Shown here: positions 45,312 to 60,842 of the stretch, in pieces | How the letters are laid out: every line of letters begins with the position of its first letter | Position numbering within the stretch: the stretch's first letter is position 1 | Source: Deltaproteobacteria bacterium | GTDB lineage: Bacteria > Desulfobacterota > Deferrimicrobia > Deferrimicrobiales > Deferrimicrobiaceae | DNA: 64,000 nucleotides | Direction of reading: 5' to 3' | NCBI GenBank assembly: GCA_050263095.1 | Contig: JBLNEW010000012.1 | Location: 7,572-71,571, forward strand | Program-made: the position numbers and the translations under genes | Notes under the pieces: generated by a model | Databases searched by the model: none | Seen by the model: the letters and a program-made list of their open reading frames with translations, nothing else | Told to the model about the DNA's origin: nothing

Positions 45312-47444
45312 TCAGCCGTCCAGGGTCTCCCGGACCTTCCTTCCCAGGTCTTCCGGCGAAAACGGCTTCTGGAGGAACGAGGTGCAGCTTTCCACTATCC
45401 CGTGATAGGCAAGGGAGTTGTCGGAATATCCGGATATGTACATCGTTTTCATCTCCGGCCGAACCAGGGAAATTCTCCTGGACAGTTCGACGCCGCTCAT
45501 CTCCGGCATCACGATGTCCGTCACGAGCAGGTGGATCCTGTCTCCGTAGCGTTCGCAGACCCCAAGGGCCTCCACCCCGTTGCAGGAATCCAGGACCCTG
45601 TATCCGCTCCTTTCCAGGACTTCTCTAAGCAGCTTTCGGACCGTATCGTCGTCTTCCACCAGCAAGACCGTCTCCGATCCGCGAAAACGCCCGGAAGGGG
45701 CGGCATGGGCGATCGACTCGGGCCTCTCCTCCACCCGGGGGAGATAGATCTTGAAATTCGTGCCCCGCCCGGGCTCGCTGTAAACCCAGATGTATCCCCC
45801 GCTGTTCTTCACGATCCCGTACACCACCGAGAGGCCCAATCCCGTCCCCTTCTCGCCTTCCTTCGTGGTGAAGAACGGATCGAATATCTGCCGCTTCGTC
45901 TCCCCGTCCATCCCGGACCCGTTGTCGCTCACCACGAGCATCGCGTAGCTGCCCGGGCGCACGGGGATGTTCTCGAATATCCTTACGTCGTCCAGCTGCA
46001 CGTTCGAGGTCTCGATCGACAGCTTGCCGCCGCGCGGCATCGCGTCGCGTGCGTTCACCGCCAGGTTTATGATCACCTGCTCGATCTGGCCGGGGTCCGA
46101 CTTCACCGGCCACAATCCGGGATCCAGGACGGTGCGTATCTCGATGTCCTCGCCGATAAGCCTTCGCAGCATCGATTCAAGGCCGAGCACCAGCCCGTTC
46201 AGGTCCAATACCTTTGCCTGGGCCGCCTGCTGGCGGCTGAAGGTCAGCAATTGCCTGGTGAGCGTGCCGGCGCGCTCTCCCGCCTTCCGTATTTCCTCGA
46301 CGTTTCCGCGCCGCGGATCGTCCTCATCCAACTGGGTCAGGAGAAGGTCGCTGTAACCGTCGATGGCCGTGAGGATGTTGTTGAAGTCGTGCGAAACGCC
46401 GGCCGCCAGCCGTCCCACCGCCTCCATTTTAGCCGCCTGGAAAATCTGTTTCTTGAGCTTGCGCCGCTCCTCCTCCGCCATCCTGCGTTCCGTGATGTTT
46501 TCGATAACGGACATGACCCCTTGCATGTCGCCGCTTTCCTGGCGCAGGGGCGCGGCGGAAAACCTGATGTCCACCTGGGTTCCATCCTTGCTCCGGCGCC
46601 TGGCCTCCACCCCTGTCAGCGTCTCGCCGTCCAGCACCCTCGCGCGCAGCGCCCGGCTCTCCTCTTCGTCGCACTCATGGACCGTCGGGTCCGGGCGGCC
46701 GGCCACTTCGCTCTCTTTCCACCCGAATATCTTCTCCGCCGCCCGGTTCCACATCCTCACGTTTCCATCGGTATCGTGGACCACGATGACCAGGGGCGAT
46801 GCATGAACGAGCGTATGGAGCGCCCGGTAGACGTCTCTGCGCCTGAACTCCGGAACGGGCGAATCGGAATCCCTTCCGGCGGCCGCGGTGCGGGTAGTCC
46901 GCAGCATGTAGCGCGCGCGATGGCCCAGGATCAGGCAGTTGAACGGCTTCGTCACGAAATCCGTGGCGCCGACCTCGTATGCGCGATTGATCGATTCGAC
47001 GTCGTCCAAGACCGTCATCATCATTATCGGGACGTGGCTGCCTCCCGGCATCCTGCGAAGGGCGGCGCAGACTTCGAAGCCGTCGATATCATCCATCAGC
47101 ACGTCGAGCAATACTATGTCCGGCATGAAGCGGCCGAATGCCGCGAGCGCTGCGGTTCCGCTCTCCGCTTCCTCTACGGCAAATCCGGCTCCGGAGAGGG
47201 ATGCGGAGGCAAGAAGGCGGGTCGTCTTCTCGTCGTCCACGATCAGCGCCAGCGGGCGGTCGCTTTCCGCCCGTTTCCTGTACCCGGCGCCCTTGCTGAA
47301 GGCGTCTATCGAGAAACTCACGACCTTTCCGAATGAATCTCGTTCAAACAGCGGGAATTGTTCTAAAGACGCCGCATTGCGCGTTAATATTGTTGATTCC
47401 CCACCGACATCTTTGGAATATGCGCTCATCGCATCCGCCCTCAA
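45312..47444 (-). CDS. Cytoplasmic hybrid histidine kinase (REC, PAS, HisKA, HATPase, REC)
   Basis: N-terminal receiver (LIVDDE...DIVLLDVLM). PAS. H-box SHDFNNILTAI. C-terminal receiver (LLVEDDD...LLVTDIVMP). Confidence 0.75.
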   Translation of the reverse strand: MRADAMSAYSKDVGGESTILTRNAASLEQFPLFERDSFGKVVSFSIDAFSKGAGYRKRAESDRPLALIVDDEKTTRLLASASLSGAGFAVEEAESGTAALAAFGRFMPDIVLLDVLMDDIDGFEVCAALRRMPGGSHVPIMMMTVLDDVESINRAYEVGATDFVTKPFNCLILGHRARYMLRTTRTAAAGRDSDSPVPEFRRRDVYRALHTLVHASPLVIVVHDTDGNVRMWNRAAEKIFGWKESEVAGRPDPTVHECDEEESRALRARVLDGETLTGVEARRRSKDGTQVDIRFSAAPLRQESGDMQGVMSVIENITERRMAEEERRKLKKQIFQAAKMEAVGRLAAGVSHDFNNILTAIDGYSDLLLTQLDEDDPRRGNVEEIRKAGERAGTLTRQLLTFSRQQAAQAKVLDLNGLVLGLESMLRRLIGEDIEIRTVLDPGLWPVKSDPGQIEQVIINLAVNARDAMPRGGKLSIETSNVQLDDVRIFENIPVRPGSYAMLVVSDNGSGMDGETKRQIFDPFFTTKEGEKGTGLGLSVVYGIVKNSGGYIWVYSEPGRGTNFKIYLPRVEERPESIAHAAPSGRFRGSETVLLVEDDDTVRKLLREVLERSGYRVLDSCNGVEALGVCERYGDRIHLLVTDIVMPEMSGVELSRRISLVRPEMKTMYISGYSDNSLAYHGIVESCTSFLQKPFSPEDLGRKVRETLDG

Positions 47445-49650: not shown

Positions 49651-50553
49651 ATGAAATCGCCATTCGTCATCTGCGGAGCGACAGGGAACGTGGGGAGGAA
49701 GATCGCCGACATCTTATTGACCGCCGGGGAGCCGGTTCGCGTCATAGGGAGGGAGCGGGTCCGGCTGGGACCCCTCGCCGCCAAGGGTGCGGAGCCGTGG
49801 CCGGGCGACATCGGGGACGCGTCCTTCCTGGCGAAAGCATTCGCAGGGGCCCGCGCGGTGTTCGCCATGATCCCGCCCAAACACGACGCCGCGGACCACA
49901 GGGGCTATCAGAACCGGATCGCGGAAACGGTGGCGGCGGCGATCGCGAAGGCCCGCGTCCCTCGCGTAGTCGCCTTGAGCAGCATCGGGGCGCACCTTTC
50001 GGAGGGATCGGGTCCGATACTGGGACTTCACCATCTCGAGAACAAGCTGGGCGAGCTCCGCGACGCGGCGGCGGTCCACCTGCGGCCCGGCTACTTCATG
50101 GAGAACCACCTCTGGAGCATCTCCGTGATACGCGAACACGGTGTCGCGGGAAGCCCTGTCCGGCCCGACGTCCCGATTCCCATGGTCGCGACGAAGGACA
50201 TTGCGCACGCCGCGTCCCGCCTGCTGCTGGAAGGGACGTTCACCGGGCACGCCGTCCGTTACCTTCTGGGACCGCGCGACCTGACGTTGTCGGAGGCCGC
50301 CGGCATCCTCGGCAGGGCGATCGGGAAGCCGGACCTCCGGTACGTCCAGTTCCCCGAAGAGGAGGCGCGCAAAGCCATGTCCGCGATGGGAATGTCCGCG
50401 AGCGCGGTCGATGCCATGCTCGAGATGCAACGCGGCTTCAACGAGGGGAAAATCCGCCCGACCCGGGATCGGGACGTGGGGAGCACAACGCCTACGACTC
50501 TGGAGGAGTTCGCCGAAACCGTTTTCGCCGCGGCGTACCGCAGGGCGGCCTGA
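49651..50553 (+). CDS. NmrA-like NAD(P)-binding protein
   Basis: CGATGNVG Rossmann motif. NmrA/atypical SDR family length. Confidence 0.65.
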   Translation: MKSPFVICGATGNVGRKIADILLTAGEPVRVIGRERVRLGPLAAKGAEPWPGDIGDASFLAKAFAGARAVFAMIPPKHDAADHRGYQNRIAETVAAAIAKARVPRVVALSSIGAHLSEGSGPILGLHHLENKLGELRDAAAVHLRPGYFMENHLWSISVIREHGVAGSPVRPDVPIPMVATKDIAHAASRLLLEGTFTGHAVRYLLGPRDLTLSEAAGILGRAIGKPDLRYVQFPEEEARKAMSAMGMSASAVDAMLEMQRGFNEGKIRPTRDRDVGSTTPTTLEEFAETVFAAAYRRAA

Positions 50554-50587
50554 ATCGAAGTCGTGATGGCATAGAAGCGAAGCGATC

Positions 50588-51259
50588 ATGTGCGGGCGAT
50601 TCACGCTGTTCGAATCCGGCCGGATCCTTTCGAAGATGTTCGACGCCCCCCTTTCGGACGCCCCTGCCTCGAGATACAACATAGCCCCGTCCCAGACGGT
50701 CCTTGTGGTCCGTCGCGCCCAGGGATCGGGACGGCGCGAGTTCGCCCTCGTCCGGTGGGGGCTTGTCCCTTCCTGGGCCGGGGACCCGGCGATCGGAAAC
50801 CGGCTCATCAACGCCCGCTCCGAGACCGCGCACGAAAAACCCGCGTTCCGGGCCGCCTACAGGAGCCGGCGCTGCCTTATCCCGACGAGCGGTTTCTACG
50901 AATGGCGGCGGCTCGAGCGGGCGAAGCAGCCGTACTTCATCCGCATGACTGACGGACGGCCCTTCGCCTTCGCCGGATTGTGGGAGCATTGGGAAGGGCC
51001 GGACGGAAACGCGATCGAATCGTGCGCGATCCTGACGACCGGATCGAACCGGGTCCTCTCGCCCATCCACGACCGGATGCCAGCGATCATCGGCCCCGGG
51101 GACTACGACCGCTGGCTCGATCCCGCGGACCGAAAGCCGGAATCGGCGAGCCCCCTTCTTGCGCCGTACGATCCCGATGAAATGACATCCTACCCGGTGA
51201 GCGCCCGCGTCAACAGCCCGGCGATCGACGACAAGGCGTGCATAGCCTCTCTCTCGTAG
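50588..51259 (+). CDS. yedK: SOS response-associated peptidase (SRAP/YedK/HMCES family) abasic-site processing protein
   Basis: Starts MCGRF (catalytic Cys2). Conserved SRAP motifs (NARSET, FYEW). Immediately upstream of lexA. Confidence 0.8.
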   Translation: MCGRFTLFESGRILSKMFDAPLSDAPASRYNIAPSQTVLVVRRAQGSGRREFALVRWGLVPSWAGDPAIGNRLINARSETAHEKPAFRAAYRSRRCLIPTSGFYEWRRLERAKQPYFIRMTDGRPFAFAGLWEHWEGPDGNAIESCAILTTGSNRVLSPIHDRMPAIIGPGDYDRWLDPADRKPESASPLLAPYDPDEMTSYPVSARVNSPAIDDKACIASLS

Positions 51260-51265
51260 CCGACG

Positions 51266-51295
51266 GTCAGCAGGTATGTTAGCATACCCTCATGG
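51266..51295. promoter_or_regulatory. Putative LexA operator (GGTATGTTAGCATACC) overlapping the lexA start
   Basis: 16-bp core GGTATG-N4-CATACC, 4 nt before the lexA ATG. Related to the 30-bp palindromes at 51913 and 58076. Confidence 0.55.
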
Positions 51296-51903
51296 GCGCT
51301 CCACTCACCCGGTCGCAGCGGCAGGTCCTGGCGTTCATCCGGGAGTTCATCGCGCGCCACAGGTTCGCCCCCACGGCCAGGGAGATCGCCGCGCGCTTCG
51401 GCATCGCCGAGAAGAACGGCTTCTACTACCTGGACGTCCTCGAGCGCAAGGGGTTTTTAAGGCGCGGAAAGCACCAGCCCCGGCGGATCGAGCTCCTTGG
51501 AGAGCCCCTGCCCCGGACTCCGGCGCGGGTGCCCGTCCTGGGCCGCGTCCCGGCAGGCAACCCCCTGGAAGCGTTAGAGGAGATCGAGGAAGAGCTGTTC
51601 CTGGACCCCTCCCTGCTGGGAGAAGGGGAAGTCTTCTCCCTGCGCGTCAAGGGGGACAGCATGGAAGGCGCCCACATCTGCGACGGGGATTACGTCCTGG
51701 TCAGGGCGCAGCAGGACGCCGAGGGAGGGGAAATCGTCGTGGCGGTGATCGACGGAGATGCCACGGTCAAGAGGTTCCGCCGGCAGCGCGGCAAGGTAAA
51801 GCTCGAGGCGGCCAACCCGTCCTACCCGCCGATCGCCGTCCCCGCCGACTCGCCCCATTTCCGCATCGCAGGCAAGGTCATCGGGGTCTTCCGGAAAATG
51901 TAG
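51292..51903 (+). CDS. lexA: LexA repressor
   Basis: N-terminal winged HTH. Ala-Gly cleavage-site region. S24 peptidase Ser...Lys dyad (GDSMEG ... KRF). Confidence 0.85.
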   Translation: MGAPLTRSQRQVLAFIREFIARHRFAPTAREIAARFGIAEKNGFYYLDVLERKGFLRRGKHQPRRIELLGEPLPRTPARVPVLGRVPAGNPLEALEEIEEELFLDPSLLGEGEVFSLRVKGDSMEGAHICDGDYVLVRAQQDAEGGEIVVAVIDGDATVKRFRRQRGKVKLEAANPSYPPIAVPADSPHFRIAGKVIGVFRKM

Positions 51904-51912
51904 GCCAGGCCG

Positions 51913-51942
51913 CCATATAGGTATGTTAACATACCTATATGG
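51913..51942. promoter_or_regulatory. Perfect 30-bp palindrome CCATATAGGTATGTTAACATACCTATATGG (putative LexA operator) overlapping the downstream start codon
   Basis: The reverse complement is identical. The ATG of the next gene (51939) lies inside the right arm. Confidence 0.6.
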
Positions 51943-52595
51943 GCAATCCGGCCGATATCGAGCGCGCCTCCTTCATCTGCCTCTCCCCGCCTCCGGGCAG
52001 GATGGCGGGGATCTTCGGAGACGGGGCCTGCCCCCTGGCGCTGCGGGCGCTGGCCCGGCCGCTGCTGCTCGGGGAAGCCGTCGTCGCCGTGGACGGGGGG
52101 AACCGGTTCGACCCGTACGAGATCGGCAAGGCGGCCAGGGCGCTGGGGGGAGACGGGAAGGACGCCCTCGAAAGGATCCGCGTCTCCCGGGCGTTCACCT
52201 GCCACCAGATGGAGGCGCTCCTGGTCCGCAAGCTGCCTTCCGCCCTGGCACGGTACGACGCCCGGCTTGCCCTGGTCCTGGGCCTGCCGGAGACGTTCAC
52301 GGACGCCGACGTCCCGTACGCGGAGGCTTGCCGCATCTTCCGTAGCTGCCTGTCCGCGCTGCGGCGGATCGCCTGGAAGGGAACCCGCATAGTGCTTGTC
52401 GGCAAGGCGGAAGCCGCAAGGCGGGGCGCGGGATATCGTTCCCCGGCGCCCGCCGCCGAAAACCGCGACGGGTTTTTCCGGCACCTCGCCCGGACGGCCG
52501 ATCCCGTGCTCCTTCTGCACCGGGAAGAAAACGGGCTGCGGTGGGAGCTGCGCCGGAGAGGCGCTTCCCCTGCCCGCCTGCCGGGAGGACGATGA
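51939..52595 (+). CDS. Putative SOS-induced RecA-fold-like protein (ImuA/SulA-like, hypothetical)
   Basis: 218-aa ORF directly after lexA with the operator at its start. Degenerate P-loop-like VAVDGGNRFD. Function inferred from context only. Confidence 0.4.
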   Translation: MGNPADIERASFICLSPPPGRMAGIFGDGACPLALRALARPLLLGEAVVAVDGGNRFDPYEIGKAARALGGDGKDALERIRVSRAFTCHQMEALLVRKLPSALARYDARLALVLGLPETFTDADVPYAEACRIFRSCLSALRRIAWKGTRIVLVGKAEAARRGAGYRSPAPAAENRDGFFRHLARTADPVLLLHREENGLRWELRRRGASPARLPGGR

Positions 52596-52889
52596 ATGGG
52601 CCGCACGGTGCTCCCGTTCACCCAGGAGCTGTACCGCGAGGAGGAATCCTGGAAATCGTTCCGGCGTGCGCTGCGCCGCGAGGACCGGGAGCTCTTCGAC
52701 GAGCTGTTCGCCGCCGCCCGCTACCACACGGCCGCCTGCACCTGCTCTGGTCGGGCCGTCCCCTTCGAGGCGATCCTGATGAGCATCCTGCTCGAGGAGC
52801 GGCGGGCGGTGCGCGAACTCTCCCGCCGGCTGGACGAGCTGGCGCGCCGGCTGATGGAGGGGGAACCGAAATGCCCAGGCGGCAAATGA
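52596..52889 (+). CDS. Hypothetical small protein, translationally coupled to the preceding gene
   Basis: 97 aa. Its start abuts the preceding stop. Charged/helical. Confidence 0.3.
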   Translation: MGRTVLPFTQELYREEESWKSFRRALRREDRELFDELFAAARYHTAACTCSGRAVPFEAILMSILLEERRAVRELSRRLDELARRLMEGEPKCPGGK

Positions 52890-52968
52890 AGTTTCACTGA
52901 ATGCCTTCCGATAAAACTGTTGATAAGTTCCGGCACGCGACGCAGATCCTATTTGGGGAAGGATACCC

Positions 52969-54297
52969 GTGGATTCGTTTTCATCCCTGATAACAAAAGC
53001 GGCACTGCTGTTCCTGGGCATCGCCCTGTTCGCCGAGTACCTGTTCCGGAGACGCAAATTACTGGCCGAGTCCGGAAAGAACAGGTCCAAACAGCAAAAA
53101 CTCATTGAATTTTCGAAGGAATTGAAATTACTTAAGAAGAACCTTGCCCGAAAGACCGAAATCGCCGACCAGATTCCCCTTATCATCAAGAAGCTGACTG
53201 AGAATCTTAGTCAAAGCTCCCTTCCCGCAATGGCCGTCCGGTCCGCCAAGGAGCTGTTCCATGCGGAGAAGGCGGGATTCTTCACCCCGGTCAACGGCAC
53301 CGCCGAATATACCCTGGAGGTCGGCGCCGGCTTCCCCCCCGATTGGCAGGGCAAGATAAGAATCGACGCCGACGAGGGAATCCTGGGCATGGCGCTCCAG
53401 AAGAAGGTGGTGGTCTCCCGGATGGATCCGCTCTCATTCGCCGGCAGAAGATCGTCCAGCCGGTCGCTCGAGCAGCTTGGGGCAATCCCCGACTTCGTAG
53501 CGCCGGTTTTCGGCGTTTCCGGAACGATAGGCGCCCTTGTCATCGCCGGTTGTCCGTTCCCCCTCGAAGAGGAGCGGAAATACATGTCGATGCTCGCCGA
53601 TCTGCTCTCCACCGCCATGCAGAAGGCGACCCTTATCGATTCGAGCATATCCAGGTCCTGGGTCGATCACCTGACCGGCGTATCCAACAGGCTGCATTTC
53701 CTGCAGAGGTTCGAGAGCGAAGTCCGGCGCTCCGAGAACTATCGGCAAGCGCTGGCCCTGTTCATGTTCGACATAGACGAGTTCAAAAAGATCAACGACA
53801 CGTACGGACATGCCGCAGGAGACGTCGTGCTGAAGAAAATGGTGGAAATCGTCAGGCAGAACACCCGGAGCTCCGACCTTATCGGGCGATTCGGGGGCGA
53901 CGAGTTCATGGTGCTGATGATGTCTTCCAACGCGGAACAGTCGCGCCATTACGCCGAGAAGCTGCGTGAGATCATCTCCGCGACGGATATCCGGATTCCG
54001 GGACAGGACGCTCCCGTCCGCCTGACGATCAGCGGCGGATTGGCGATGTGGCCGGTCGACGGGCAGTCGACCACCGAATTGATGCAGTGCGCCGATGTCG
54101 CCCTCTACGAAGCGAAACGCAAAGGAAGGAACAACATCGTTCTCATCCAATCCCTGGGCCTTGACGGCGCGATCCTCCACGGGCAGGGATCGGAGCCGGC
54201 GAAGCAGGTCCCGGCAGCCGGCGATAATGCGGCAGGCATCGAGGAAAAGGATGGCGTCCTGGAGCTGTGCGACGACGAATGGGAATCGCTGGCATGA
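52969..54297 (+). CDS. Membrane-anchored GAF-GGDEF diguanylate cyclase
   Basis: N-terminal TM. GAF-like region. GGDEF active site RFGGDEF with RxxD I-site. The 5' part has markedly lower GC. Confidence 0.75.
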   Translation: MDSFSSLITKAALLFLGIALFAEYLFRRRKLLAESGKNRSKQQKLIEFSKELKLLKKNLARKTEIADQIPLIIKKLTENLSQSSLPAMAVRSAKELFHAEKAGFFTPVNGTAEYTLEVGAGFPPDWQGKIRIDADEGILGMALQKKVVVSRMDPLSFAGRRSSSRSLEQLGAIPDFVAPVFGVSGTIGALVIAGCPFPLEEERKYMSMLADLLSTAMQKATLIDSSISRSWVDHLTGVSNRLHFLQRFESEVRRSENYRQALALFMFDIDEFKKINDTYGHAAGDVVLKKMVEIVRQNTRSSDLIGRFGGDEFMVLMMSSNAEQSRHYAEKLREIISATDIRIPGQDAPVRLTISGGLAMWPVDGQSTTELMQCADVALYEAKRKGRNNIVLIQSLGLDGAILHGQGSEPAKQVPAAGDNAAGIEEKDGVLELCDDEWESLA

Positions 54298-56969
54298 AGA
54301 ACCTGTCCAGGTTCAGGAACAGCATCGCGATTCCCATCGTCTTCATCCTGCTGATACTGACCGCCGGGATACTTCTGGCGGGCTTTCAGATCAACAGGAA
54401 CGTTTTTTACAACGTTTTCGAAGAGAGGGAGAAAAGCAAGGCGAAAAACATACACCTGACCATCGAATCCATGCTGTCCAGCGAAGAAAAAAGGCTCAAC
54501 AGCCTTGCGAAGGTGCTGAAAAGGGATACGGACATCTCGTATTCGCTTTACCACTACAAGCTTGCCGGCGGCGACTTGAGACCGTTGAAATCGGTCATGA
54601 ACCAGCTGTACGCGCAGATGAACCTGCCTTTGTTCATAATGGCGGACAGGAACGGGAACATCCTCTACCGGACGGACAAATCGAAGGAACAGGAAAAGCT
54701 CCTCTCGTTCGACGCGTTTCACGAGGCGTTGAAGGGAAAGCAGGTCATCACCGCATCCAGGTCTCCCAGCGGGTGGGGTCTGCGGGCAGTCGTCCCGATC
54801 CATGCCTTCGAGAATCGCGAGCCGTCGGGAATCATGATTCTCGGAAGCAGGATCGACGACGGGTTCGCGAAAAAGATCGCAAGCGAAACCGGCAGCCAGG
54901 TCTTCATCGCTACGCCGGAAGGCGTGATCGCCGGTTCGTACAAGACGCTGGACTCTTCGGCGATGGACCTGTCCCTCGTGAACAGAAGCCTGGCGGACAA
55001 AAAGCCCCTGTTCTTCGCGGACCGGCGCAATTTCCGATCCTACACTTACGTCCCGATCAGAATAATCGACGAGGAATTCTGCCTCGTCGTCGAGACGGAC
55101 ATAAGCGTCGTGAAGGAACTGTTGAGCAAATACAGGATGGAGATGTTCCAATGGGGGCTGATCATCTTCCTGTGCGTCGCATCGATAGGCGCCGCCTTCA
55201 CTTTCACGATCATCCATCCGCTGAACGAACTGCAGGAAAAAGCCCGCGGGGTCGTCAGGGAATATTCCGGGGACGATTCGAAAGCCGCCTCCAGGGGAAA
55301 CGAGATATCGACGCTGGTGCGGGCGTTCAACCTGATGGTGGAAACCATCAGGGACCACATTTCCGAGCGGAAAAAAACCGAAGAGGCGCTGCGTGAGACC
55401 GGACGAACGCTCCAGGCGCTGATCGAAGCATCTCCGCTGGCCATCATCGTCACCGACGCATCCGGCGATATAAAGGTATGGAATCCCGCCGCCGTGCACA
55501 TCTTCGGATGGAGCGGGAACGAGGCGATCGGCCGAGGGAACCCCATCTGCGCGAAAGAGGGGAATTCCGAGCTCGGCGCCATCCTGACGCTGACGTTGAA
55601 CGGCGAGAAAATCTCGAACATCGAGATTCAATGCAAGGGGAAGAACGATTCCGCGATCGACCTTTCATATTACGGCGCCCCGCTCGTCGACGGCGACGGC
55701 CGGATCATCGGCATGACGGCGATCATGGCCGACATAACGGAGTCCAAACAGGCGCGGGATGCCCTGCGGCGAAGCGAGGAGCAGCTGAGGCAGTCCCAGA
55801 AAATGGAAGCGATCGGAAAACTTGCAGGCGGGGTCGCGCACGACTTCAACAATCTCCTATCGGTGATCACCGGCTACAGCGAACTGCTGATGGGCAGGCT
55901 CGGGAAGGACGGCCAGGGCTTTCGGGAAATCGAGGAGATAAACAAGGCGGGGGAACGCGCGGCCGCGCTGACCCACCAGCTGCTCGCTTTCAGCCGCCGC
56001 CAGGTCCTCAACCCGAAAACGATCCGGATGAACGATGTCGTGTCGAGCCTGGGAAAGATGCTCCGGCGCCTGATCGGCGAGAATATCGAGCTGGCGACGT
56101 ACGTCGACGCGGACCTGTGGACGGTGCGCGCGGACCCGATACAGATCGACCAGATCGTCCTCAATCTTGCGGTCAACGCCCGCGACGCGATGCCGCGCGG
56201 CGGAAAGCTCTCCATTTCGACTTCCAATGTCGAAATCGATCTTCCGCTCGTCGAAGGCCCGCTGAAAATACCGGCGGGACAATACGTCGTCCTCGAAGTG
56301 ACCGACACCGGATGCGGAATGGACGAGCACACCGTCGCCCGCATCTTCGAGCCGTTTTTCACCACGAAGAAGCACGGGAAAGGCACGGGCCTTGGACTTG
56401 CGACCGTCTACGGGATAGTAAAGCAAAGCGGCGGATACATCCGCGTCACCAGCAACCCCGGCAGCGGTACAAGCTTTATCGTCTACCTCCCCCGCGACAA
56501 TAGCGCCGAGACGGTGGACATGATCGAATTGTTCGCACCGGGGGAATCGCCGTGCGTCGAAACCATCCTCCTGGTAGAAGACGAGGATACCGTGCGGAAA
56601 CTGGCGTGCGAAACATTGCGGGGGTACGGATACACCGTTCTCGAAGCCTCCAATGGACCGGAGGCAGTTTCGGCCAGCGCGAAGTTCGACGGGACCATCC
56701 ACCTGCTGATAACCGACGTTGTCATGCCGGGGATGAGCGGGCTCGAGTTGTCGCAAAACCTTAAAAAAAGCCGTCCCGGGATGCCGGTGCTTTTCATGTC
56801 GGGGTATTCGGAGGAGGTGCTGTCGCGGGTCGGGTTCATGGGGCCCGGGGAAGCTTTCTTCCAGAAGCCGGTCACCCCTGCGAGGCTCTACGCAAAGATT
56901 CGCGAAATACTTCGGCTCACTTCTCCACAATCACATGCTGCTGGCGCATCCCGCCCACCACTAATGTAA
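54294..56969 (+). CDS. Hybrid sensor histidine kinase (periplasmic sensor, HAMP, PAS x2, HisKA, HATPase, REC)
   Basis: ATGA overlap with the GGDEF gene. H-box AHDFNNLLSVI. C-terminal receiver (LLVEDED...LLITDVVMP). Lower GC in the sensor half. Confidence 0.75.
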   Translation: MKNLSRFRNSIAIPIVFILLILTAGILLAGFQINRNVFYNVFEEREKSKAKNIHLTIESMLSSEEKRLNSLAKVLKRDTDISYSLYHYKLAGGDLRPLKSVMNQLYAQMNLPLFIMADRNGNILYRTDKSKEQEKLLSFDAFHEALKGKQVITASRSPSGWGLRAVVPIHAFENREPSGIMILGSRIDDGFAKKIASETGSQVFIATPEGVIAGSYKTLDSSAMDLSLVNRSLADKKPLFFADRRNFRSYTYVPIRIIDEEFCLVVETDISVVKELLSKYRMEMFQWGLIIFLCVASIGAAFTFTIIHPLNELQEKARGVVREYSGDDSKAASRGNEISTLVRAFNLMVETIRDHISERKKTEEALRETGRTLQALIEASPLAIIVTDASGDIKVWNPAAVHIFGWSGNEAIGRGNPICAKEGNSELGAILTLTLNGEKISNIEIQCKGKNDSAIDLSYYGAPLVDGDGRIIGMTAIMADITESKQARDALRRSEEQLRQSQKMEAIGKLAGGVAHDFNNLLSVITGYSELLMGRLGKDGQGFREIEEINKAGERAAALTHQLLAFSRRQVLNPKTIRMNDVVSSLGKMLRRLIGENIELATYVDADLWTVRADPIQIDQIVLNLAVNARDAMPRGGKLSISTSNVEIDLPLVEGPLKIPAGQYVVLEVTDTGCGMDEHTVARIFEPFFTTKKHGKGTGLGLATVYGIVKQSGGYIRVTSNPGSGTSFIVYLPRDNSAETVDMIELFAPGESPCVETILLVEDEDTVRKLACETLRGYGYTVLEASNGPEAVSASAKFDGTIHLLITDVVMPGMSGLELSQNLKKSRPGMPVLFMSGYSEEVLSRVGFMGPGEAFFQKPVTPARLYAKIREILRLTSPQSHAAGASRPPLM

Positions 56970-57333
56970 CCGACGTGCCGGGCTTAAGCTTGCCGTAGGG
57001 ATTTCTGAACATGAGGGAGTGAACGGCCGCCTCCTCCGGATTCCTTATTTCCGCCAGTCGGCCGATTCGCCGCAGGATCATGAGGTAATACTTTCCGCCG
57101 GTTCCCTCGTCGATCAGGTAGGTGTCGGCAGGGTCCGCGGCGATCTCCTTCATTCCGTGCAGCCGGACTTGGACGTCCACTATCTCCTTGCTCGGGGCAA
57201 GCCTGCAATAGACCACTTCGATCCTCGGTGCATCCGCCGGCTTCGGGACGTCCACCGGCGGTCGAACGGCTTCCCTGCGCGAACACGCCTGAAGAAGCGC
57301 AAGCAATACGGCGAACAGGATTAATTTCCGCAT
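56917..57333 (-). CDS. Hypothetical lipoprotein
   Basis: Lipobox LLALLQAC. No known domain. Its 3' end overlaps the convergent kinase gene. Confidence 0.3.
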   Translation of the reverse strand: MRKLILFAVLLALLQACSRREAVRPPVDVPKPADAPRIEVVYCRLAPSKEIVDVQVRLHGMKEIAADPADTYLIDEGTGGKYYLMILRRIGRLAEIRNPEEAAVHSLMFRNPYGKLKPGTSVTLVVGGMRQQHVIVEK

Positions 57334-57432
57334 CTTCTTCCTGACTCCGCGCCCCCCGAATCGTTCATGCCGACTGCAATATATCACGGAAGGAGGATTC
57401 CTCTCCGCGGGGGCCGGGAGCGGCCCCGCCGA

Positions 57433-57981
57433 TCAGCCTTCCTTGAATTCCGGGCTTGCCTTGGCGATCGCCCACGCGGCGATCGTCATCCCGTCCCATA
57501 TCGCGCCGGCGCCGATTCGAGCGTCGATCTCGCCGCGCGTCGCCCGGACGATCTCGAACTCCTCCGTCTCGTCGGGCGCCTCCCCTACGTACCGCAATCC
57601 CCTGGCGACATAGACCCGGCACATCTCGTCGGTGACGCCGTTGTAGGGATTGAACTCCCCGACCAGGACCAGCCTCTCCGCCGAATAGCCTGTCTCCTCC
57701 GCCAGCTCGCACCCGGCCGTTTCGACATGGTTCGACCCGTCCTTCACGCTCCCGCAGGGAAACTCGACGCTCTCCCTGTCCATAAGGTAGCGATACTGGT
57801 TCACCAGCAGCACTTTCCCGTCGTCCAGAACCGGGACGACCATGGATGAGCCGTTCGTATGGACGTAATGATACTCGCCGGGCTTCCCCGACGGCAGCTC
57901 TACGGCGTCCCGCTTGTACGTCCACCAGGGGTTCCTGAGCACGACAGACTCCGCAAGCTTCTTCCACGATTTAAGCGCCAT
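57433..57981 (-). CDS. NUDIX hydrolase (ADP-ribose pyrophosphatase-like)
   Basis: Nudix box GSVKDGSNHVETAGCELAEETG. Divergent from the polB-like gene. Confidence 0.75.
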   Translation of the reverse strand: MALKSWKKLAESVVLRNPWWTYKRDAVELPSGKPGEYHYVHTNGSSMVVPVLDDGKVLLVNQYRYLMDRESVEFPCGSVKDGSNHVETAGCELAEETGYSAERLVLVGEFNPYNGVTDEMCRVYVARGLRYVGEAPDETEEFEIVRATRGEIDARIGAGAIWDGMTIAAWAIAKASPEFKEG

Positions 57982-58075
57982 TGCCGCAGGCCCCTTCCCT
58001 CGTTCGATTCCCTCTTCCGGTTATCCGATTATATGCAAAACCGCAACCCGGGTTGCCCGAAGAGGCGACGACGGG

Positions 58076-58105
58076 TCATATAGGTATGCTAACATACCCA
58101 TATGG
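58076..58105. promoter_or_regulatory. Third copy (27 of 30 positions) of the palindromic putative LexA operator, overlapping the polB-like start codon
   Basis: TCATATAGGTATGCTAACATACCCATATGG. The ATG at 58102 lies inside the right arm. Confidence 0.55.
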
Positions 58106-60342
58106 GCGACCCGCTCACCCCGTCATGGGACATGGCCGGATGGGTGTTCGACGTGATCCCCGCGCCGGGCGGTATGACCGTGTGGTTCCGCTCCGAGTCC
58201 GGGGAAACGACGGCGCTGTCCGCCCCTTTTCGCCCCTCCTTCGTCCTGGCGGGGGAAACGCTGAATGAGACGACCCTTCGGGCGGCTTCGGCCCGCTGGA
58301 ACTGCTCACTTGCGCGCGGGGAAGGCGCCGAGTTCTTCTCCGGCAGGGCGGTTCCCGCCTGGACTTTCACGGTCCCCGCGCCTGCCCTCCTGGGGCCTAC
58401 CGTCCGGAAAGCCGAGAAGGCGTTCGGGCCGGAGGCGCTGTTCAACGCCGACATCGCCCCGGAGCAGCAGTTCGCCTGCGCCACCGGGCTCTACCCGCTC
58501 TCGCGCGCCCGCGTGGAATGCGACGGCGACGGGACGATCGTTTCCTCGCGGGTCCTCGACTCCCCGTGGGATATCGACTCGCCCCTCCCCTTCTTTTCCA
58601 CCGCGCTCCTTCGCGCGGAAGGCAAGGGGCACCCGGAGCACGGGAGGGTCCGCCCGCTGGAGCTCACCGCCTGCGGCGTCACGCACGTTCTTTCGTGGGA
58701 AGACGGGGCGGGGTTCCTCCGGGAGCTATTGCGGCTCCTTGAAAGGGCCGATCCCGACCTGCTAGTCACGGAGTACGGGGACGATTACCTGCTGCCGCGC
58801 CTGCTCGGCCTGGCCGGCCGGCTGCGGGTCCCCCTTCCGCTGGGGCGCCCGTCGCGGCGCCCGGGGGCGGACGCCGCGGTCCGCCGCGCCAGGGAGCGGT
58901 CGTACCTTTCCTACGGCCGCGTGGTCTTTCTCGCCGCCCCGCACACGCTTTCCGGACGGTGGCACGTGGACGCGCGCAACTCCTTCCTATTCGGGGAGAC
59001 CGGCCTGCCGGGCCTGATCGAGCTTGCGCGCCTCTCCGGCATCCCCCTCCAGCGCCTGGCGCGGACCTCGCCGGGCACGGCCATATCCGCGATGCAGGTC
59101 GCCACCGCCCTGCGCCGCGGGATCCTGGTGCCCTACAAGAAGCGGGAGCCCGAGGAGTTCAAGTCCGGGGCCGAACTGGTCGTCACCGACAAGGGGGGGC
59201 TCACGTACCTGCCGCGCCCAGGGCTGCACGAGAACGTGGGCGAGCTCGACTTCGCCTCGATGTACCCGTCCCTCATGGACCGCTACAACATCTCCCCCGA
59301 AACGATCAACTGCGGGTGCTGCGGCGGCCATCCGCCCTACGGCCGCCCCGGCGTCCCCGTCCCGGAGATCGGCGCCCGCACGTGCGTCCGCCGAAGGGGG
59401 CTCGTTCCCGATACGATCGCCCCGATCCTGGCCAAGCGGCGGCTTCTCAAAAATCGGCAGGCGGCCTGCGCGCATCCCGAAGAGCGCGAGCTGTTCAGGA
59501 AACGGCAGACGGCGCTCAAATGGCTCCTCGTGGTCTGCTTCGGGTTCCTGGGATACCGCAACGCCCGGTTCGGCCGGATCGAGGCGCACGAGGCGGTAAC
59601 CGCCTGGGGGCGGGAGAAGCTCCTTGCCGCCAAGGAGACCGCGGAGAGCCTCGGCTTTCTCTTCCTGCACGGGCTGACCGACGCCGTCTGGGTCAAGCGG
59701 GAAGGCGCGTCCGAGGAGGATTACCGGGAGCTCGCCGAACGGATCACGGAGAAGACCGGAATGCCGATCGCGCTGGAGGGGGTCTACCGGTGGCTGATGT
59801 TCCTCCCCTCCAAGCGCAATCCCAAGGTGGCCGTCCCGAACCGGTTCGCGGGAGCGTTCTCCACCGGGGCGATCAAGGCGCGCGGGATCGCCATGCGCCG
59901 GTCCGACACCCCGCCGGTGGTCGCGGCCCTCCAGCGGGAGCTTTTGGAGCGGATGGCCGCGGCGGAAACGGCCGCGGACCTCAAGGCCATGCTGCCGGAG
60001 CTTCGCGGGATCACGGAGCGCGCCGTCGCCGGGCTTTCCGAGGGGCGCATCCCGCCCGAGGCGCTGGCCGTCGCGCGGCGCCTTTCCAAGGCGCCAGAGC
60101 AGTACGTCGCCGACACCGCGGCCGCCGCGGTCACCCGGGAGCTGTGCGGGCGCGGCGTGACGCTGCGGCCCGGATCCAAGATCCGGTACCTGCTTGCCGA
60201 CGGTAAAGGGCGGGCGATGGGCTTCCTGGACGGGAACGAGACGCCGGATTTCGCGCGGTACGAGGAGATGCTGCGGGAGGCGGAAGACGAGCTGCTCGGG
60301 CTTGTTCGGGAGCATGACCGATGCTTCTTCGGGAGCGAATGA
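58102..60342 (+). CDS. polB: Family-B DNA polymerase, Pol II-like, with divergent catalytic motifs
   Basis: Co-linear by eye with E. coli Pol II. Motif A DFASMYPS is intact. Motif B reads KWLLVVCFGFLGY (canonical KxxxNSxYG). Motif C reads HGLTDA (canonical YGDTDS). The exo II region reads YGDDYL (canonical NxxxFD). Confidence 0.65.
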   Translation: MGDPLTPSWDMAGWVFDVIPAPGGMTVWFRSESGETTALSAPFRPSFVLAGETLNETTLRAASARWNCSLARGEGAEFFSGRAVPAWTFTVPAPALLGPTVRKAEKAFGPEALFNADIAPEQQFACATGLYPLSRARVECDGDGTIVSSRVLDSPWDIDSPLPFFSTALLRAEGKGHPEHGRVRPLELTACGVTHVLSWEDGAGFLRELLRLLERADPDLLVTEYGDDYLLPRLLGLAGRLRVPLPLGRPSRRPGADAAVRRARERSYLSYGRVVFLAAPHTLSGRWHVDARNSFLFGETGLPGLIELARLSGIPLQRLARTSPGTAISAMQVATALRRGILVPYKKREPEEFKSGAELVVTDKGGLTYLPRPGLHENVGELDFASMYPSLMDRYNISPETINCGCCGGHPPYGRPGVPVPEIGARTCVRRRGLVPDTIAPILAKRRLLKNRQAACAHPEERELFRKRQTALKWLLVVCFGFLGYRNARFGRIEAHEAVTAWGREKLLAAKETAESLGFLFLHGLTDAVWVKREGASEEDYRELAERITEKTGMPIALEGVYRWLMFLPSKRNPKVAVPNRFAGAFSTGAIKARGIAMRRSDTPPVVAALQRELLERMAAAETAADLKAMLPELRGITERAVAGLSEGRIPPEALAVARRLSKAPEQYVADTAAAAVTRELCGRGVTLRPGSKIRYLLADGKGRAMGFLDGNETPDFARYEEMLREAEDELLGLVREHDRCFFGSE

Positions 60343-60407
60343 GGCTATAATCGAGTCCGCTCCCTGACGCTCGCGTTTATTCCGATTTTTGAAAAGGAGA
60401 GACGAGA

Positions 60408-60842
60408 ATGAAAGCGTTACTTGTCGGGACGCTGCTGGCAGCGCTCATGATGCAGCCCGTCGCCGGGTCCTGCGGCGGCGACCTGGACAGTTTCATCGGA
60501 AACCTGAACGTTCAGGCCAGGGCGGACCTGCCGGGCTTCAAGGTCAAGCTGTCGGCGCAGTTCGGCATTCCGGTGCCGCAGGTGGAAGCGGTCATCGCAA
60601 ATGTGCAGACGCCGGGGGACGCATACATGGTGCTGCGGGTCGGGCAGGTCGCCGCGCAGCCCAGGGAAGTGGTCCTGGACGAGTACCGGGCGCACAAGGG
60701 CAAGGGATGGGGCGTGATCGCGAAGAACCTCGGCATAAAGCCCGGCTCGCGGGAGTTCCATGAACTAAAAAAGGGGTTCGACGGCGGCTCCGGCAAGGGA
60801 CAGGGGAAGGGTAAAGGCAAGGGGAAAGGGCGGGGCAAATAG
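60408..60842 (+). CDS. Secreted hypothetical protein with a C-terminal Gly-Lys repeat tail
   Basis: Signal peptide. C-terminal GSGKGQGKGKGKGKGRGK. Confidence 0.4.
   Translation: MKALLVGTLLAALMMQPVAGSCGGDLDSFIGNLNVQARADLPGFKVKLSAQFGIPVPQVEAVIANVQTPGDAYMVLRVGQVAAQPREVVLDEYRAHKGKGWGVIAKNLGIKPGSREFHELKKGFDGGSGKGQGKGKGKGKGRGK

Follow-up and report, generated by a model that had tools for sequence, protein, structure and literature searches.

A PolB2 polymerase gene parted from its operon partners and probably kept under LexA control in a Deferrimicrobiaceae genome

A stretch of 64,000 nucleotides from contig JBLNEW010000012.1 of assembly GCA_050263095.1 (the window, in what follows) carries at 58102..60342, on the + strand, a gene for a family-B DNA polymerase of 746 amino acids. 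We consider it very probable that this gene is polB2 of the bacterial G2 group and that its product is the catalytic subunit of a LexA-controlled PolB2 mutasome of three proteins, a damage-tolerance polymerase derived from archaea. The mutasome itself is already described; what is new at this locus is the split of its operon, the presence of the lexA 5' module in three copies, and a candidate LexA box. The proteins of the window are public as MGE5698684-691, and their closest named relatives are those of Candidatus Deferrimicrobiaceae. In the public annotation PolB2 is a "DNA polymerase domain-containing protein", and its partners iRadA and PPB2 are "hypothetical proteins".

The polymerase is of the archaeal type

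The open reading frame was confirmed as a family-B polymerase by its match to Pfam PF00136 (DNA_pol_B) at E 1.4e-30. An initial annotation, made from the letters of the window, had gone further and described a protein that follows E. coli Pol II along its whole length; this description did not hold. The top NCBIfam models are archaeal-type subfamilies of PRK05761 (NF004416 with 389 bits and NF004418 with 326 bits, both under their cut-offs), whereas the Pol II models fall far short of their cut-offs, which lie between 570 and 1435 bits: NF004421 reaches 59 bits, NF004422 39 and NF004420 28. When sequences in the PDB were searched, the PolB enzymes of the Thermococcales (Pyrococcus and Thermococcus) matched best, at E 4e-50, while E. 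coli Pol II (3k57) matched at E 3e-7 and over residues 303-619 only.

The predicted fold gave a similar picture. An AlphaFold2 (AF2) model of PolB2, built with 26 homologues, has a mean predicted local distance difference test score (pLDDT) of 90 and a predicted template modelling score of 0.89. In a Foldseek search of the PDB with this model the top 50 matches were all archaeal PolB, with template modelling (TM) scores up to 0.73; Pyrobaculum 5mdn and the KOD polymerase were among the matches, with TM scores of about 0.7. Because archaeal PolB outscores Pol II both by sequence and by fold, the protein is an archaeal-type family-B polymerase and not a Pol II-like one, and it belongs with archaeal PolB, much nearer than to E. 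coli Pol II. Orthology with Pol II is ruled out by the NCBIfam and PDB scores together with the changed exonuclease, motif B and motif C residues described below. The family is large, with more than 4,400 homologues in the 90% collection and 747 clusters at E<1e-30.

Altered motifs are signatures of the family

To describe the motifs, the query was aligned by MAFFT with 120 representatives of distinct 50%-identity clusters, which are 33-66% identical to it, and with KOD as a reference. Independent HMMER alignments back the placing of motifs A to C, of Exo II and of the Exo III region against this reference, but not that of Exo I. For the register of the motifs, an HMMER alignment to Pyrococcus abyssi PolB and the MAFFT alignment (122 sequences) agree, and the register that the initial annotation had drawn by eye for motifs A, B and C and Exo II proved right. 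The counts that follow refer to the 120 representatives, and all motif coordinates lie on the + strand.

Motif A (ELDFASMYPSLM, 59242..59277) is intact and reads ELDFASMYPS, with the catalytic Asp, D383, in 120/120 and Y388, in the steric-gate region, in 115/120. The variant motif B (TALKWLLVVCFGFLG, 59509..59553) reads KWLLVVCFG, against KILANSYYG in the reference: K473 is kept (119/120), and Asn, Ser and Tyr are replaced by Val, Val and Phe. These replacements are shared by most of the family, as V477 stands for Asn in 113/120 and F480 for Tyr in 117/120; the flanking W474 and G481 are found in 113/120 and 119/120. In the variant motif C (FLHGLTDAVW, 59662..59691) the core is HGLTD, against YSDTD in the reference. 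H523 is present in 111/120 and the second Asp, D527, in 120/120; the first Asp is L525 in the window, and its column holds Ile (65), Leu (32), Tyr (12), Asn (5), Met (3) and Val (3), with Asp in none of the representatives. The region of the KxY motif has Arg at 581 in 109/120 and Tyr or Phe at 582 in 120/120.

The exonuclease domain also departs from the reference. In the degenerate Exo II region (LLVTEYGDDYLLPR, 58759..58800), TEYGDDYLL stands against TYNGDNFDF, and the catalytic Asp has become L230; Leu, Ile or Val occupies this column in 99/120 and Asp in 3. The MAFFT placing of Exo I against KOD was unreliable, and Exo I was placed again by AF2 secondary structure, on a strand at 167-173 whose register is approximate; an acidic pair occurs there in only 10/120, and no conserved DxE of an exonuclease was found across the 120 representatives. 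At the site where proofreading PolBs carry Exo III, the canonical YxxxD is replaced by a family-specific GRWHxD (58954..58971, residues 285-290), with G285 and R286 in 120/120, H288 in 117/120 and D290 in 115/120. This motif might have a structural role or form an interface with PPB2 or iRadA. Judged by its residues, the 3'-5' exonuclease active site of PolB2 is lost, leaving the enzyme without a proofreading site.

The bacterial clade of PolB2 was named G2, nested in archaeal B2, by Kazlauskas 2020 (PMC7544198), and was defined by a non-conserved Exo I, a missing Exo III, one motif C Asp and a D(K/R) motif, which is also defined in PMC11791011. The window protein carries this last signature as D363-K364-G-G ahead of motif A (59188..59199), with D363 and G365 in 120/120 and Lys or Arg at 364 in 108/120. 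The initial annotation had taken the altered motifs for catalytic degeneration and had proposed asking whether the substitutions are conserved in the clade. They are, and since the deviations are themselves conserved over 120 clusters, they are signatures of the family and not decay. The loss of the first Asp of the motif C DxD, the intact motif A and the changed Exo II, all noted by eye, agree with the alignments; D383 of motif A, K473 of motif B and the invariant D527 of motif C are all kept.

Altered motifs of this kind could also belong to a catalytically dead scaffold that recruits a polymerase or a clamp, as ImuB or the C-terminal half of Pol epsilon does. Before 2020 the literature saw PolB2 in this way (PMC4104785), and the view is favoured by the loss of the first motif C Asp, by the changes of the motif B Asn, Ser and Tyr, by the missing exonuclease site and by the absence, in the searched literature, of an assay of any bacterial member. 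We nevertheless think it unlikely. The two invariant Asp residues of motifs A and C, the motif B Lys and residues 581 and 582 together make the pattern of an active site under selection. Sulfolobus Dpo2, moreover, incorporates nucleotides robustly and without proofreading (Feng 2022, PMC8764526), and its motif C is of the type IID in place of DxD, as given for S. islandicus PolB2 in PMC11791011. According to the same study of Dpo2, the enzyme extends mismatched and lesion-paired termini efficiently.

Some members of the family are much longer than the window protein. In P0140, P0204 and other PolB2 representatives of about 1250 amino acids, an insertion of about 500 amino acids splits motif B at query residue 480. 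Its Pfam matches (Intein_splicing, LAGLIDADG_3 and Hom_end) identify the insertion as an intein that carries a homing endonuclease of the LAGLIDADG type.

Partner proteins and gene order

The genes of the presumed partners follow lexA. The first, at 51939..52595 (+), encodes 218 amino acids that make up an inactivated ATPase core of the RadA/Rad51 type. A profile of 22 orthologues matches DMC1, Rad51 and P. furiosus RadA, the last at E 2.5e-11; the alignment with RadA covers the ATPase core only and begins after Walker A, with the N-terminal helical domain outside it. Gly stands in place of the Walker B Asp, and there is no GKT/S in the P-loop region (GIFGDGACPL). By its sequence, then, this protein is iRadA, derived from RadA/Rad51. 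The initial annotation had called it ImuA-like, an identity that is ruled out by the matches of the profile to RadA, DMC1 and Rad51. The wider proposal, of an SOS-type cassette in which a divergent PolB stands with an inactive protein of the RecA superfamily and which functionally resembles ImuA-ImuB-DnaE2 or Pol V, survives.

The C-termini of iRadA differ between phyla. In Chloroflexota and Acidobacteriota (L011, L014, L018, L023, L024, L036, L076 and L082) many iRadA proteins end in clamp motifs of the types QLRLF, QPRLF and QLNMF, and C-terminal beta-clamp-binding motifs of iRadA are also reported in PMC11791011. Bacteroidota and Ignavibacteriota have a distinct conserved tail, R(R/G)PG(T/N/A)(L/F). 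The Deferrimicrobiota proteins, including that of the window, end in ...ARLPGGR, which has no clamp motif.

The second partner is PPB2 (arCOG07300 / DUF8156; 52596..52889, +), a protein of 97 amino acids that begins MGRTVLPFTQ and that the initial annotation had missed. A scan of it against Pfam and NCBIfam gave no match, and a known orthologue likewise gave none, with a Pfam set that lacks PF26485; the orthologues in L001-L007 carry a precomputed match to PF26485/DUF8156. As there is no direct family match, the identity of PPB2 is set by synteny, by the MGRT motif and by the fold. MGRT is invariant in an alignment of 16 PPB2 sequences and forms the N-terminal start of 67 of the 75 orthologues, and a single-sequence AF2 model (pLDDT 73) predicts a free N-terminal arm followed by helices at 7-25, 28-51 and 57-88.

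An operon of this content is known. Makarova 2014 (PMC4104785) reported, for archaea and several bacteria, a conserved operon that consists of PolB2, an inactivated RadA and arCOG07300; in some bacteria lexA lies in the same operon, for example in Leptospirillum ferriphilum (LFML04_0990-0993; PMC4104785). Timinskas 2025 (PMC11791011) modelled a "mutasome" of the composition PolB2:iRadA:PPB2(3) and identified the MGRT N-terminal arm of PPB2; in that model PPB2 is a trimer, with one arm inserted between PolB2 and iRadA. Bacterial operons are there said to have always the order iRadA-PPB2-PolB2, sometimes with interspersed genes, and neighbourhoods enriched in lexA and SRAP. PMC12926913 also belongs to the literature behind the present identification. 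The supposition that the cassette was undescribed is thereby overturned, as the operon had appeared in 2014, the G2 group in 2020 and the mutasome in 2025.

The gene order in public genomes agrees with these accounts. One genome per species was scanned, which yielded 80 PolB2 loci. Their sources include Nitrospirota, Chloroflexota, Acidobacteriota, Bacteroidota, Ignavibacteriota, Armatimonadota, Elusimicrobia, Thermodesulfobacteriota and others, with Chlorobiaceae and Methylomirabilales also represented. All open reading frames of these loci were searched by phmmer with the iRadA, PPB2 and LexA of the window. At least 1.5 kb of upstream sequence is available for 64 of the loci, which span more than 10 phyla. 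Orthologues of iRadA and PPB2 lie directly upstream of polB2 in 60/64 loci, on one strand and in the same order, and within 400 nt of polB2 in 57/64; LexA is present in 23/64. Directly upstream of lexA the window also has a gene for a YedK-like SRAP (SOS-response-associated peptidase; 50588..51259, +; Pfam PF02586, E 1.1e-77), and SRAP is found in L003/L004 as well. Among the genes at 50.5-60.4 kb there is no Y-family or C-family polymerase.

Splitting of the operon

The order iRadA-PPB2-polB2 is kept in the window, on one strand, yet a 5.2-kb insertion parts polB2 from its partners. The inserted block (52969..57981) consists of four genes that lie outside the mutasome. They encode a GGDEF protein (52969-54297, +), a PAS/HisKA/receiver hybrid kinase (54267-56969, +), a small exported protein (56917-57387, -) and a NUDIX hydrolase (57433-57981, -).

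The relatives show both the whole operon and the split one. Their PolB2 proteins are 71% to 89% identical to that of the window (L001 80%, L002 73%, L003/L004 89%, L005/L006 85%, L007 81%, L089 71%). In L001, L002, L007 and L088 the genes lexA-iRadA-PPB2-polB2 are contiguous with overlapping gene ends, and L090 is nearly so, with about 260 nt from PPB2 to the called start of polB2. In the window, L003/L004 and L005/L006, PPB2 and polB2 are separated by a gene for a hybrid histidine kinase and by a small gene on the reverse strand; the GGDEF gene is part of the insertion in the window and L003/L004, and the window has the additional NUDIX gene. Signalling genes were inserted between PPB2 and polB2 in the lineage of the window.

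Two observations concern the inserted genes themselves. The hybrid kinase at 54267-56969 (+) and another at 45312-47444 (-) resemble each other closely in their C-terminal halves, which contain HisKA, HATPase and receiver domains and have, among others, the stretches AGVSHDFNNILTAI, GGVAHDFNNLLSVI and NLAVNARDAMPRGGKLSI in common; the two appear to be paralogues, one of which was inserted in the PolB2 operon. The NUDIX gene lies directly upstream of polB2 and is divergent from it, while the NUDIX gene of L003 is found about 3.4 kb downstream of polB2. That a sanitising NUDIX enzyme stands beside a translesion polymerase may be coincidental.

A candidate LexA box and its copies

The lexA gene (51292..51903, +) encodes a protein of 203 amino acids that scores 196 bits with TIGR00498 (cut-off 111) and matches the Pfam domains LexA_DNA_bind and Peptidase_S24. 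It has an Ala88-Gly89 cleavage site, the Ser of GDSM (121-124) and Lys160. A palindrome, GGTATG-N4-CATACC, occurs three times in the 64 kb, where 0.06 occurrences are expected. The copies are GGTATGTTAGCATACC at 51273..51288, GGTATGTTAACATACC at 51920..51935 and GGTATGCTAACATACC at 58083..58098, and exactly 3 nt separate each of them from the ATG-GGC start that follows, of lexA, iRadA and polB2, respectively. The initial annotation had noticed that the palindrome of polB2 also fronts lexA, which is correct, and had set the polB2 start codon inside it. The palindrome is real, but its core ends ahead of the ATG, and only imperfect outer arms (CATATA...CATATG) take in the start codon.

The more general form nGTATr-N4-yATACn is found 3 nt before the ATG of lexA in seven distinct loci (the window, L001, L003, L005, L007, L088 and L090), for example at L001:8430-8445, at about 8439-8454 of L007, at L088:6448-6463 and at L090:6127-6142. 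In these last four the operator before lexA is the single one; in L002 the site before lexA is only half-conserved. An operator between lexA and iRadA is present in the window only and in none of L001, L002, L003, L005 and L007, and it is precisely in the split loci (the window, L003 and L005) that polB2 is preceded by a copy.

More than the operator was copied. A module of about 45 bp in front of polB2 (about 58078-58128) resembles the 5' end of lexA, and of the first 27 coding nucleotides of the two genes 20 are identical (MGDPLTPS in polB2, MGAPLTRS in lexA); the same likeness is found in L003 and L005. The iRadA of the window has gained the operator and ATGGGCAATCC, which matches the lexA start of L003. 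N-termini of the type MG, MD or ME are rare in 120 homologues of the clade, where six occur, each once (MGNP, MGDT, MGTP, MDDP, MEKP and MDKG). Those checked in context (MGNP, MDDP and MEKP) belong to the split subclade, and most of the other clade homologues start with MSRR, MPRR or MNGW. We read this as a duplication of a module of about 45 bp, containing the lexA promoter, operator and first codons, which would have kept polB2 under SOS control after the split.

The operator may hold a promoter element as well. It contains an extended -10-like sequence, TGnTA(A/G)CAT, whose last T is 7 nt before the A of the ATG; the -10-like hexamer TAnnAT lies inside the operator, with TG before it in most copies. 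The operator ends so close to the ATG that no room is left for a Shine-Dalgarno sequence, which is consistent with leaderless mRNAs. No terminator was predicted between PPB2 and the GGDEF and hybrid-kinase genes on the same strand, and transcription from the LexA-repressed promoters could run on into these genes, which would bring cyclic di-GMP signalling under SOS control.

That LexA boxes vary widely between phyla is documented in PMC4951493, and those given there are GAAC-N4-GTTC, CTGT-N8-ACAG, GTTC-N7-GTTC and TGTTC-N4-GAACA. None of these listed motifs is matched by nGTATr-N4-yATACn, which we propose as a candidate LexA box of the Deferrimicrobiota lineage. This difference, and the fact that the binding of LexA is itself a prediction, would suit a site of some other regulator; a constant place beside the ATG, in turn, could mark a transcription or translation signal shared by the three genes, such as a promoter or a leaderless start element. 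Neither seems probable to us. The palindrome fronts lexA itself in seven distinct loci, as expected of an autoregulated repressor, and its 16-bp dyad with a 4-bp spacer is like that of most LexA boxes. A polB2 that becomes separated from lexA gains a copy, and, given the strong differences of LexA boxes between phyla, an unfamiliar motif is no great objection to a LexA operator.

Mechanism and significance

The following sequence of events would account for the locus. Bacteria would have acquired the damage-tolerance polymerase PolB2 from archaea, and its partners would be iRadA and PPB2, whose genes follow lexA directly and lie 5.2 kb upstream of polB2; the MGRT arm of PPB2 is predicted to insert between PolB2 and iRadA. 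By analogy with Dpo2, PolB2 most likely is active as a polymerase, lacks exonuclease activity and serves in translesion synthesis by extending primer ends that are mismatched or paired with a lesion. LexA most likely represses by binding to the palindrome and occluding the -10 element and the start site, and self-cleavage of LexA, stimulated by RecA after DNA damage, would bring about derepression. After the insertion, the SOS control of polB2 would have been kept by the copied lexA operator, promoter and first codons, and in the genome of the window the module would have been copied in front of iRadA as well.

A bolder version of this account can be imagined, which we put forward tentatively and would not expect to hold in full. 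In it the module of about 45 bp (the operator, the extended -10 element and the first 4-8 codons) would be self-sufficient and would have turned the locus into three independent, LexA-repressed leaderless units; the insert would perhaps be SOS-controlled too, linking DNA damage to cyclic di-GMP, and the LexA box would be one not described before.

Several observations weigh against the proposal that PolB2 is the active subunit of a LexA-controlled mutasome, or narrow it. The searched literature contains no biochemical assay of a bacterial PolB2, and its activity is therefore extrapolated from Sulfolobus Dpo2. The nesting of G2 in archaeal B2 is taken here from PMC7544198 and PMC11791011. No beta-clamp motif was evident by eye, in an inspection without a scan, at the C-terminus of the window iRadA, and a regular-expression search of the last 40 residues of 120 clade homologues of PolB2 (68-97% identical) found none. 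A scan of 50400-60600 with a two-hexamer sigma-70 consensus gave no promoter, so that the -10 and leaderless reading stays a proposal that rests on the -10-like sequence and the fixed spacing. Finally, the Deferrimicrobiaceae relative L089 has a stand-alone polB2 (L089:8001-10337) with no lexA, iRadA, PPB2 or operator within 8 kb upstream. Neither LexA control of polB2 nor the rule that a split gene has its own operator is thus universal, and L089 looks like an independent break-up of the operon in which LexA control was apparently not retained.

That the gene is a decaying pseudogene or a relic of a Pol II-type repair polymerase, as its several canonical catalytic residues substituted by eye and its place apart from its partners might suggest, is next to inconceivable and is refuted by conservation over the 120 cluster representatives, in which the substitutions themselves recur (W474, V477 and H523 as counted above), and also by an intact frame with thousands of homologues, a confident AF2 model and only marginal similarity to Pol II.

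The identification removes one supposed novelty and adds some smaller ones. There is no need to assume an unknown mutagenesis system, as the "degenerate" polymerase belongs to the PolB2 mutasome family, whose members are found widely among uncultured bacteria. As bacterial PolB2 is biochemically unstudied in the searched literature, a LexA-linked example could serve to test the archaeal extender mechanism in bacteria. The split, with its duplicated operator and first codons, is a small and clear example of how membership in a regulon may be kept when an operon breaks, and the window adds a candidate LexA box from a phylum that has been little studied.

Comparison with known systems

E. coli Pol II, like PolB2, is a LexA-regulated repair and translesion polymerase of family B. 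It differs in being a single subunit with active DEDDy proofreading; its motifs B and C are canonical, and it has a clamp motif at its C-terminus. The ImuA-ImuB-DnaE2 system is a LexA-controlled, multi-protein, error-prone polymerase with an inactive subunit of the RecA superfamily, often with lexA in the operon, and in these respects it is like the system proposed for the window. Its polymerase, however, is the C-family DnaE2, its ImuB is an inactive Y-family protein, its ImuA derives from RecA and not from RadA, and neither PolB2 nor PPB2 is related to it in sequence. E. coli Pol V (UmuD'2C-RecA) is analogous in another way, as an SOS-controlled assembly in which a polymerase is joined by one recombinase-type subunit and by a small subunit whose N-terminal arm is inserted (PMC11791011); its polymerase is of the Y family, its small subunit derives from an S24 peptidase, and its RecA is active.

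Sulfolobus islandicus Dpo2 is closer. It shares with the window PolB2 a hydrophobic residue for the first Asp of DxD, the lack of proofreading and the co-encoded iRadA and PPB2. Dpo2 is DNA-damage-inducible and experimentally active as an extender of mismatches and lesions, as is predicted for the window PolB2. Dpo2 differs in being archaeal, in being regulated by factors of the Orc1-2/Cdc6 type and not by LexA, and in using PCNA and not the beta clamp; it is also a shorter protein, with a more decayed exonuclease domain.

The closest counterpart is the bacterial PolB2 mutasome, for example that of L. ferriphilum, which has the same three proteins in the same order with lexA and SRAP adjacent. 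The likeness extends to the lost first Asp of motif C, the D(K/R) motif, the exonuclease predicted to be dead, the MGRT arm and an iRadA that is apparently dead as an ATPase. Unlike many members, the window has no clamp-binding motif evident in PolB2 or iRadA. What sets its locus apart from this system is the 5.2-kb interruption by the GGDEF, hybrid-kinase, small exported protein and NUDIX genes, and the copies of the lexA operator and 5' module that polB2 and iRadA each have of their own.

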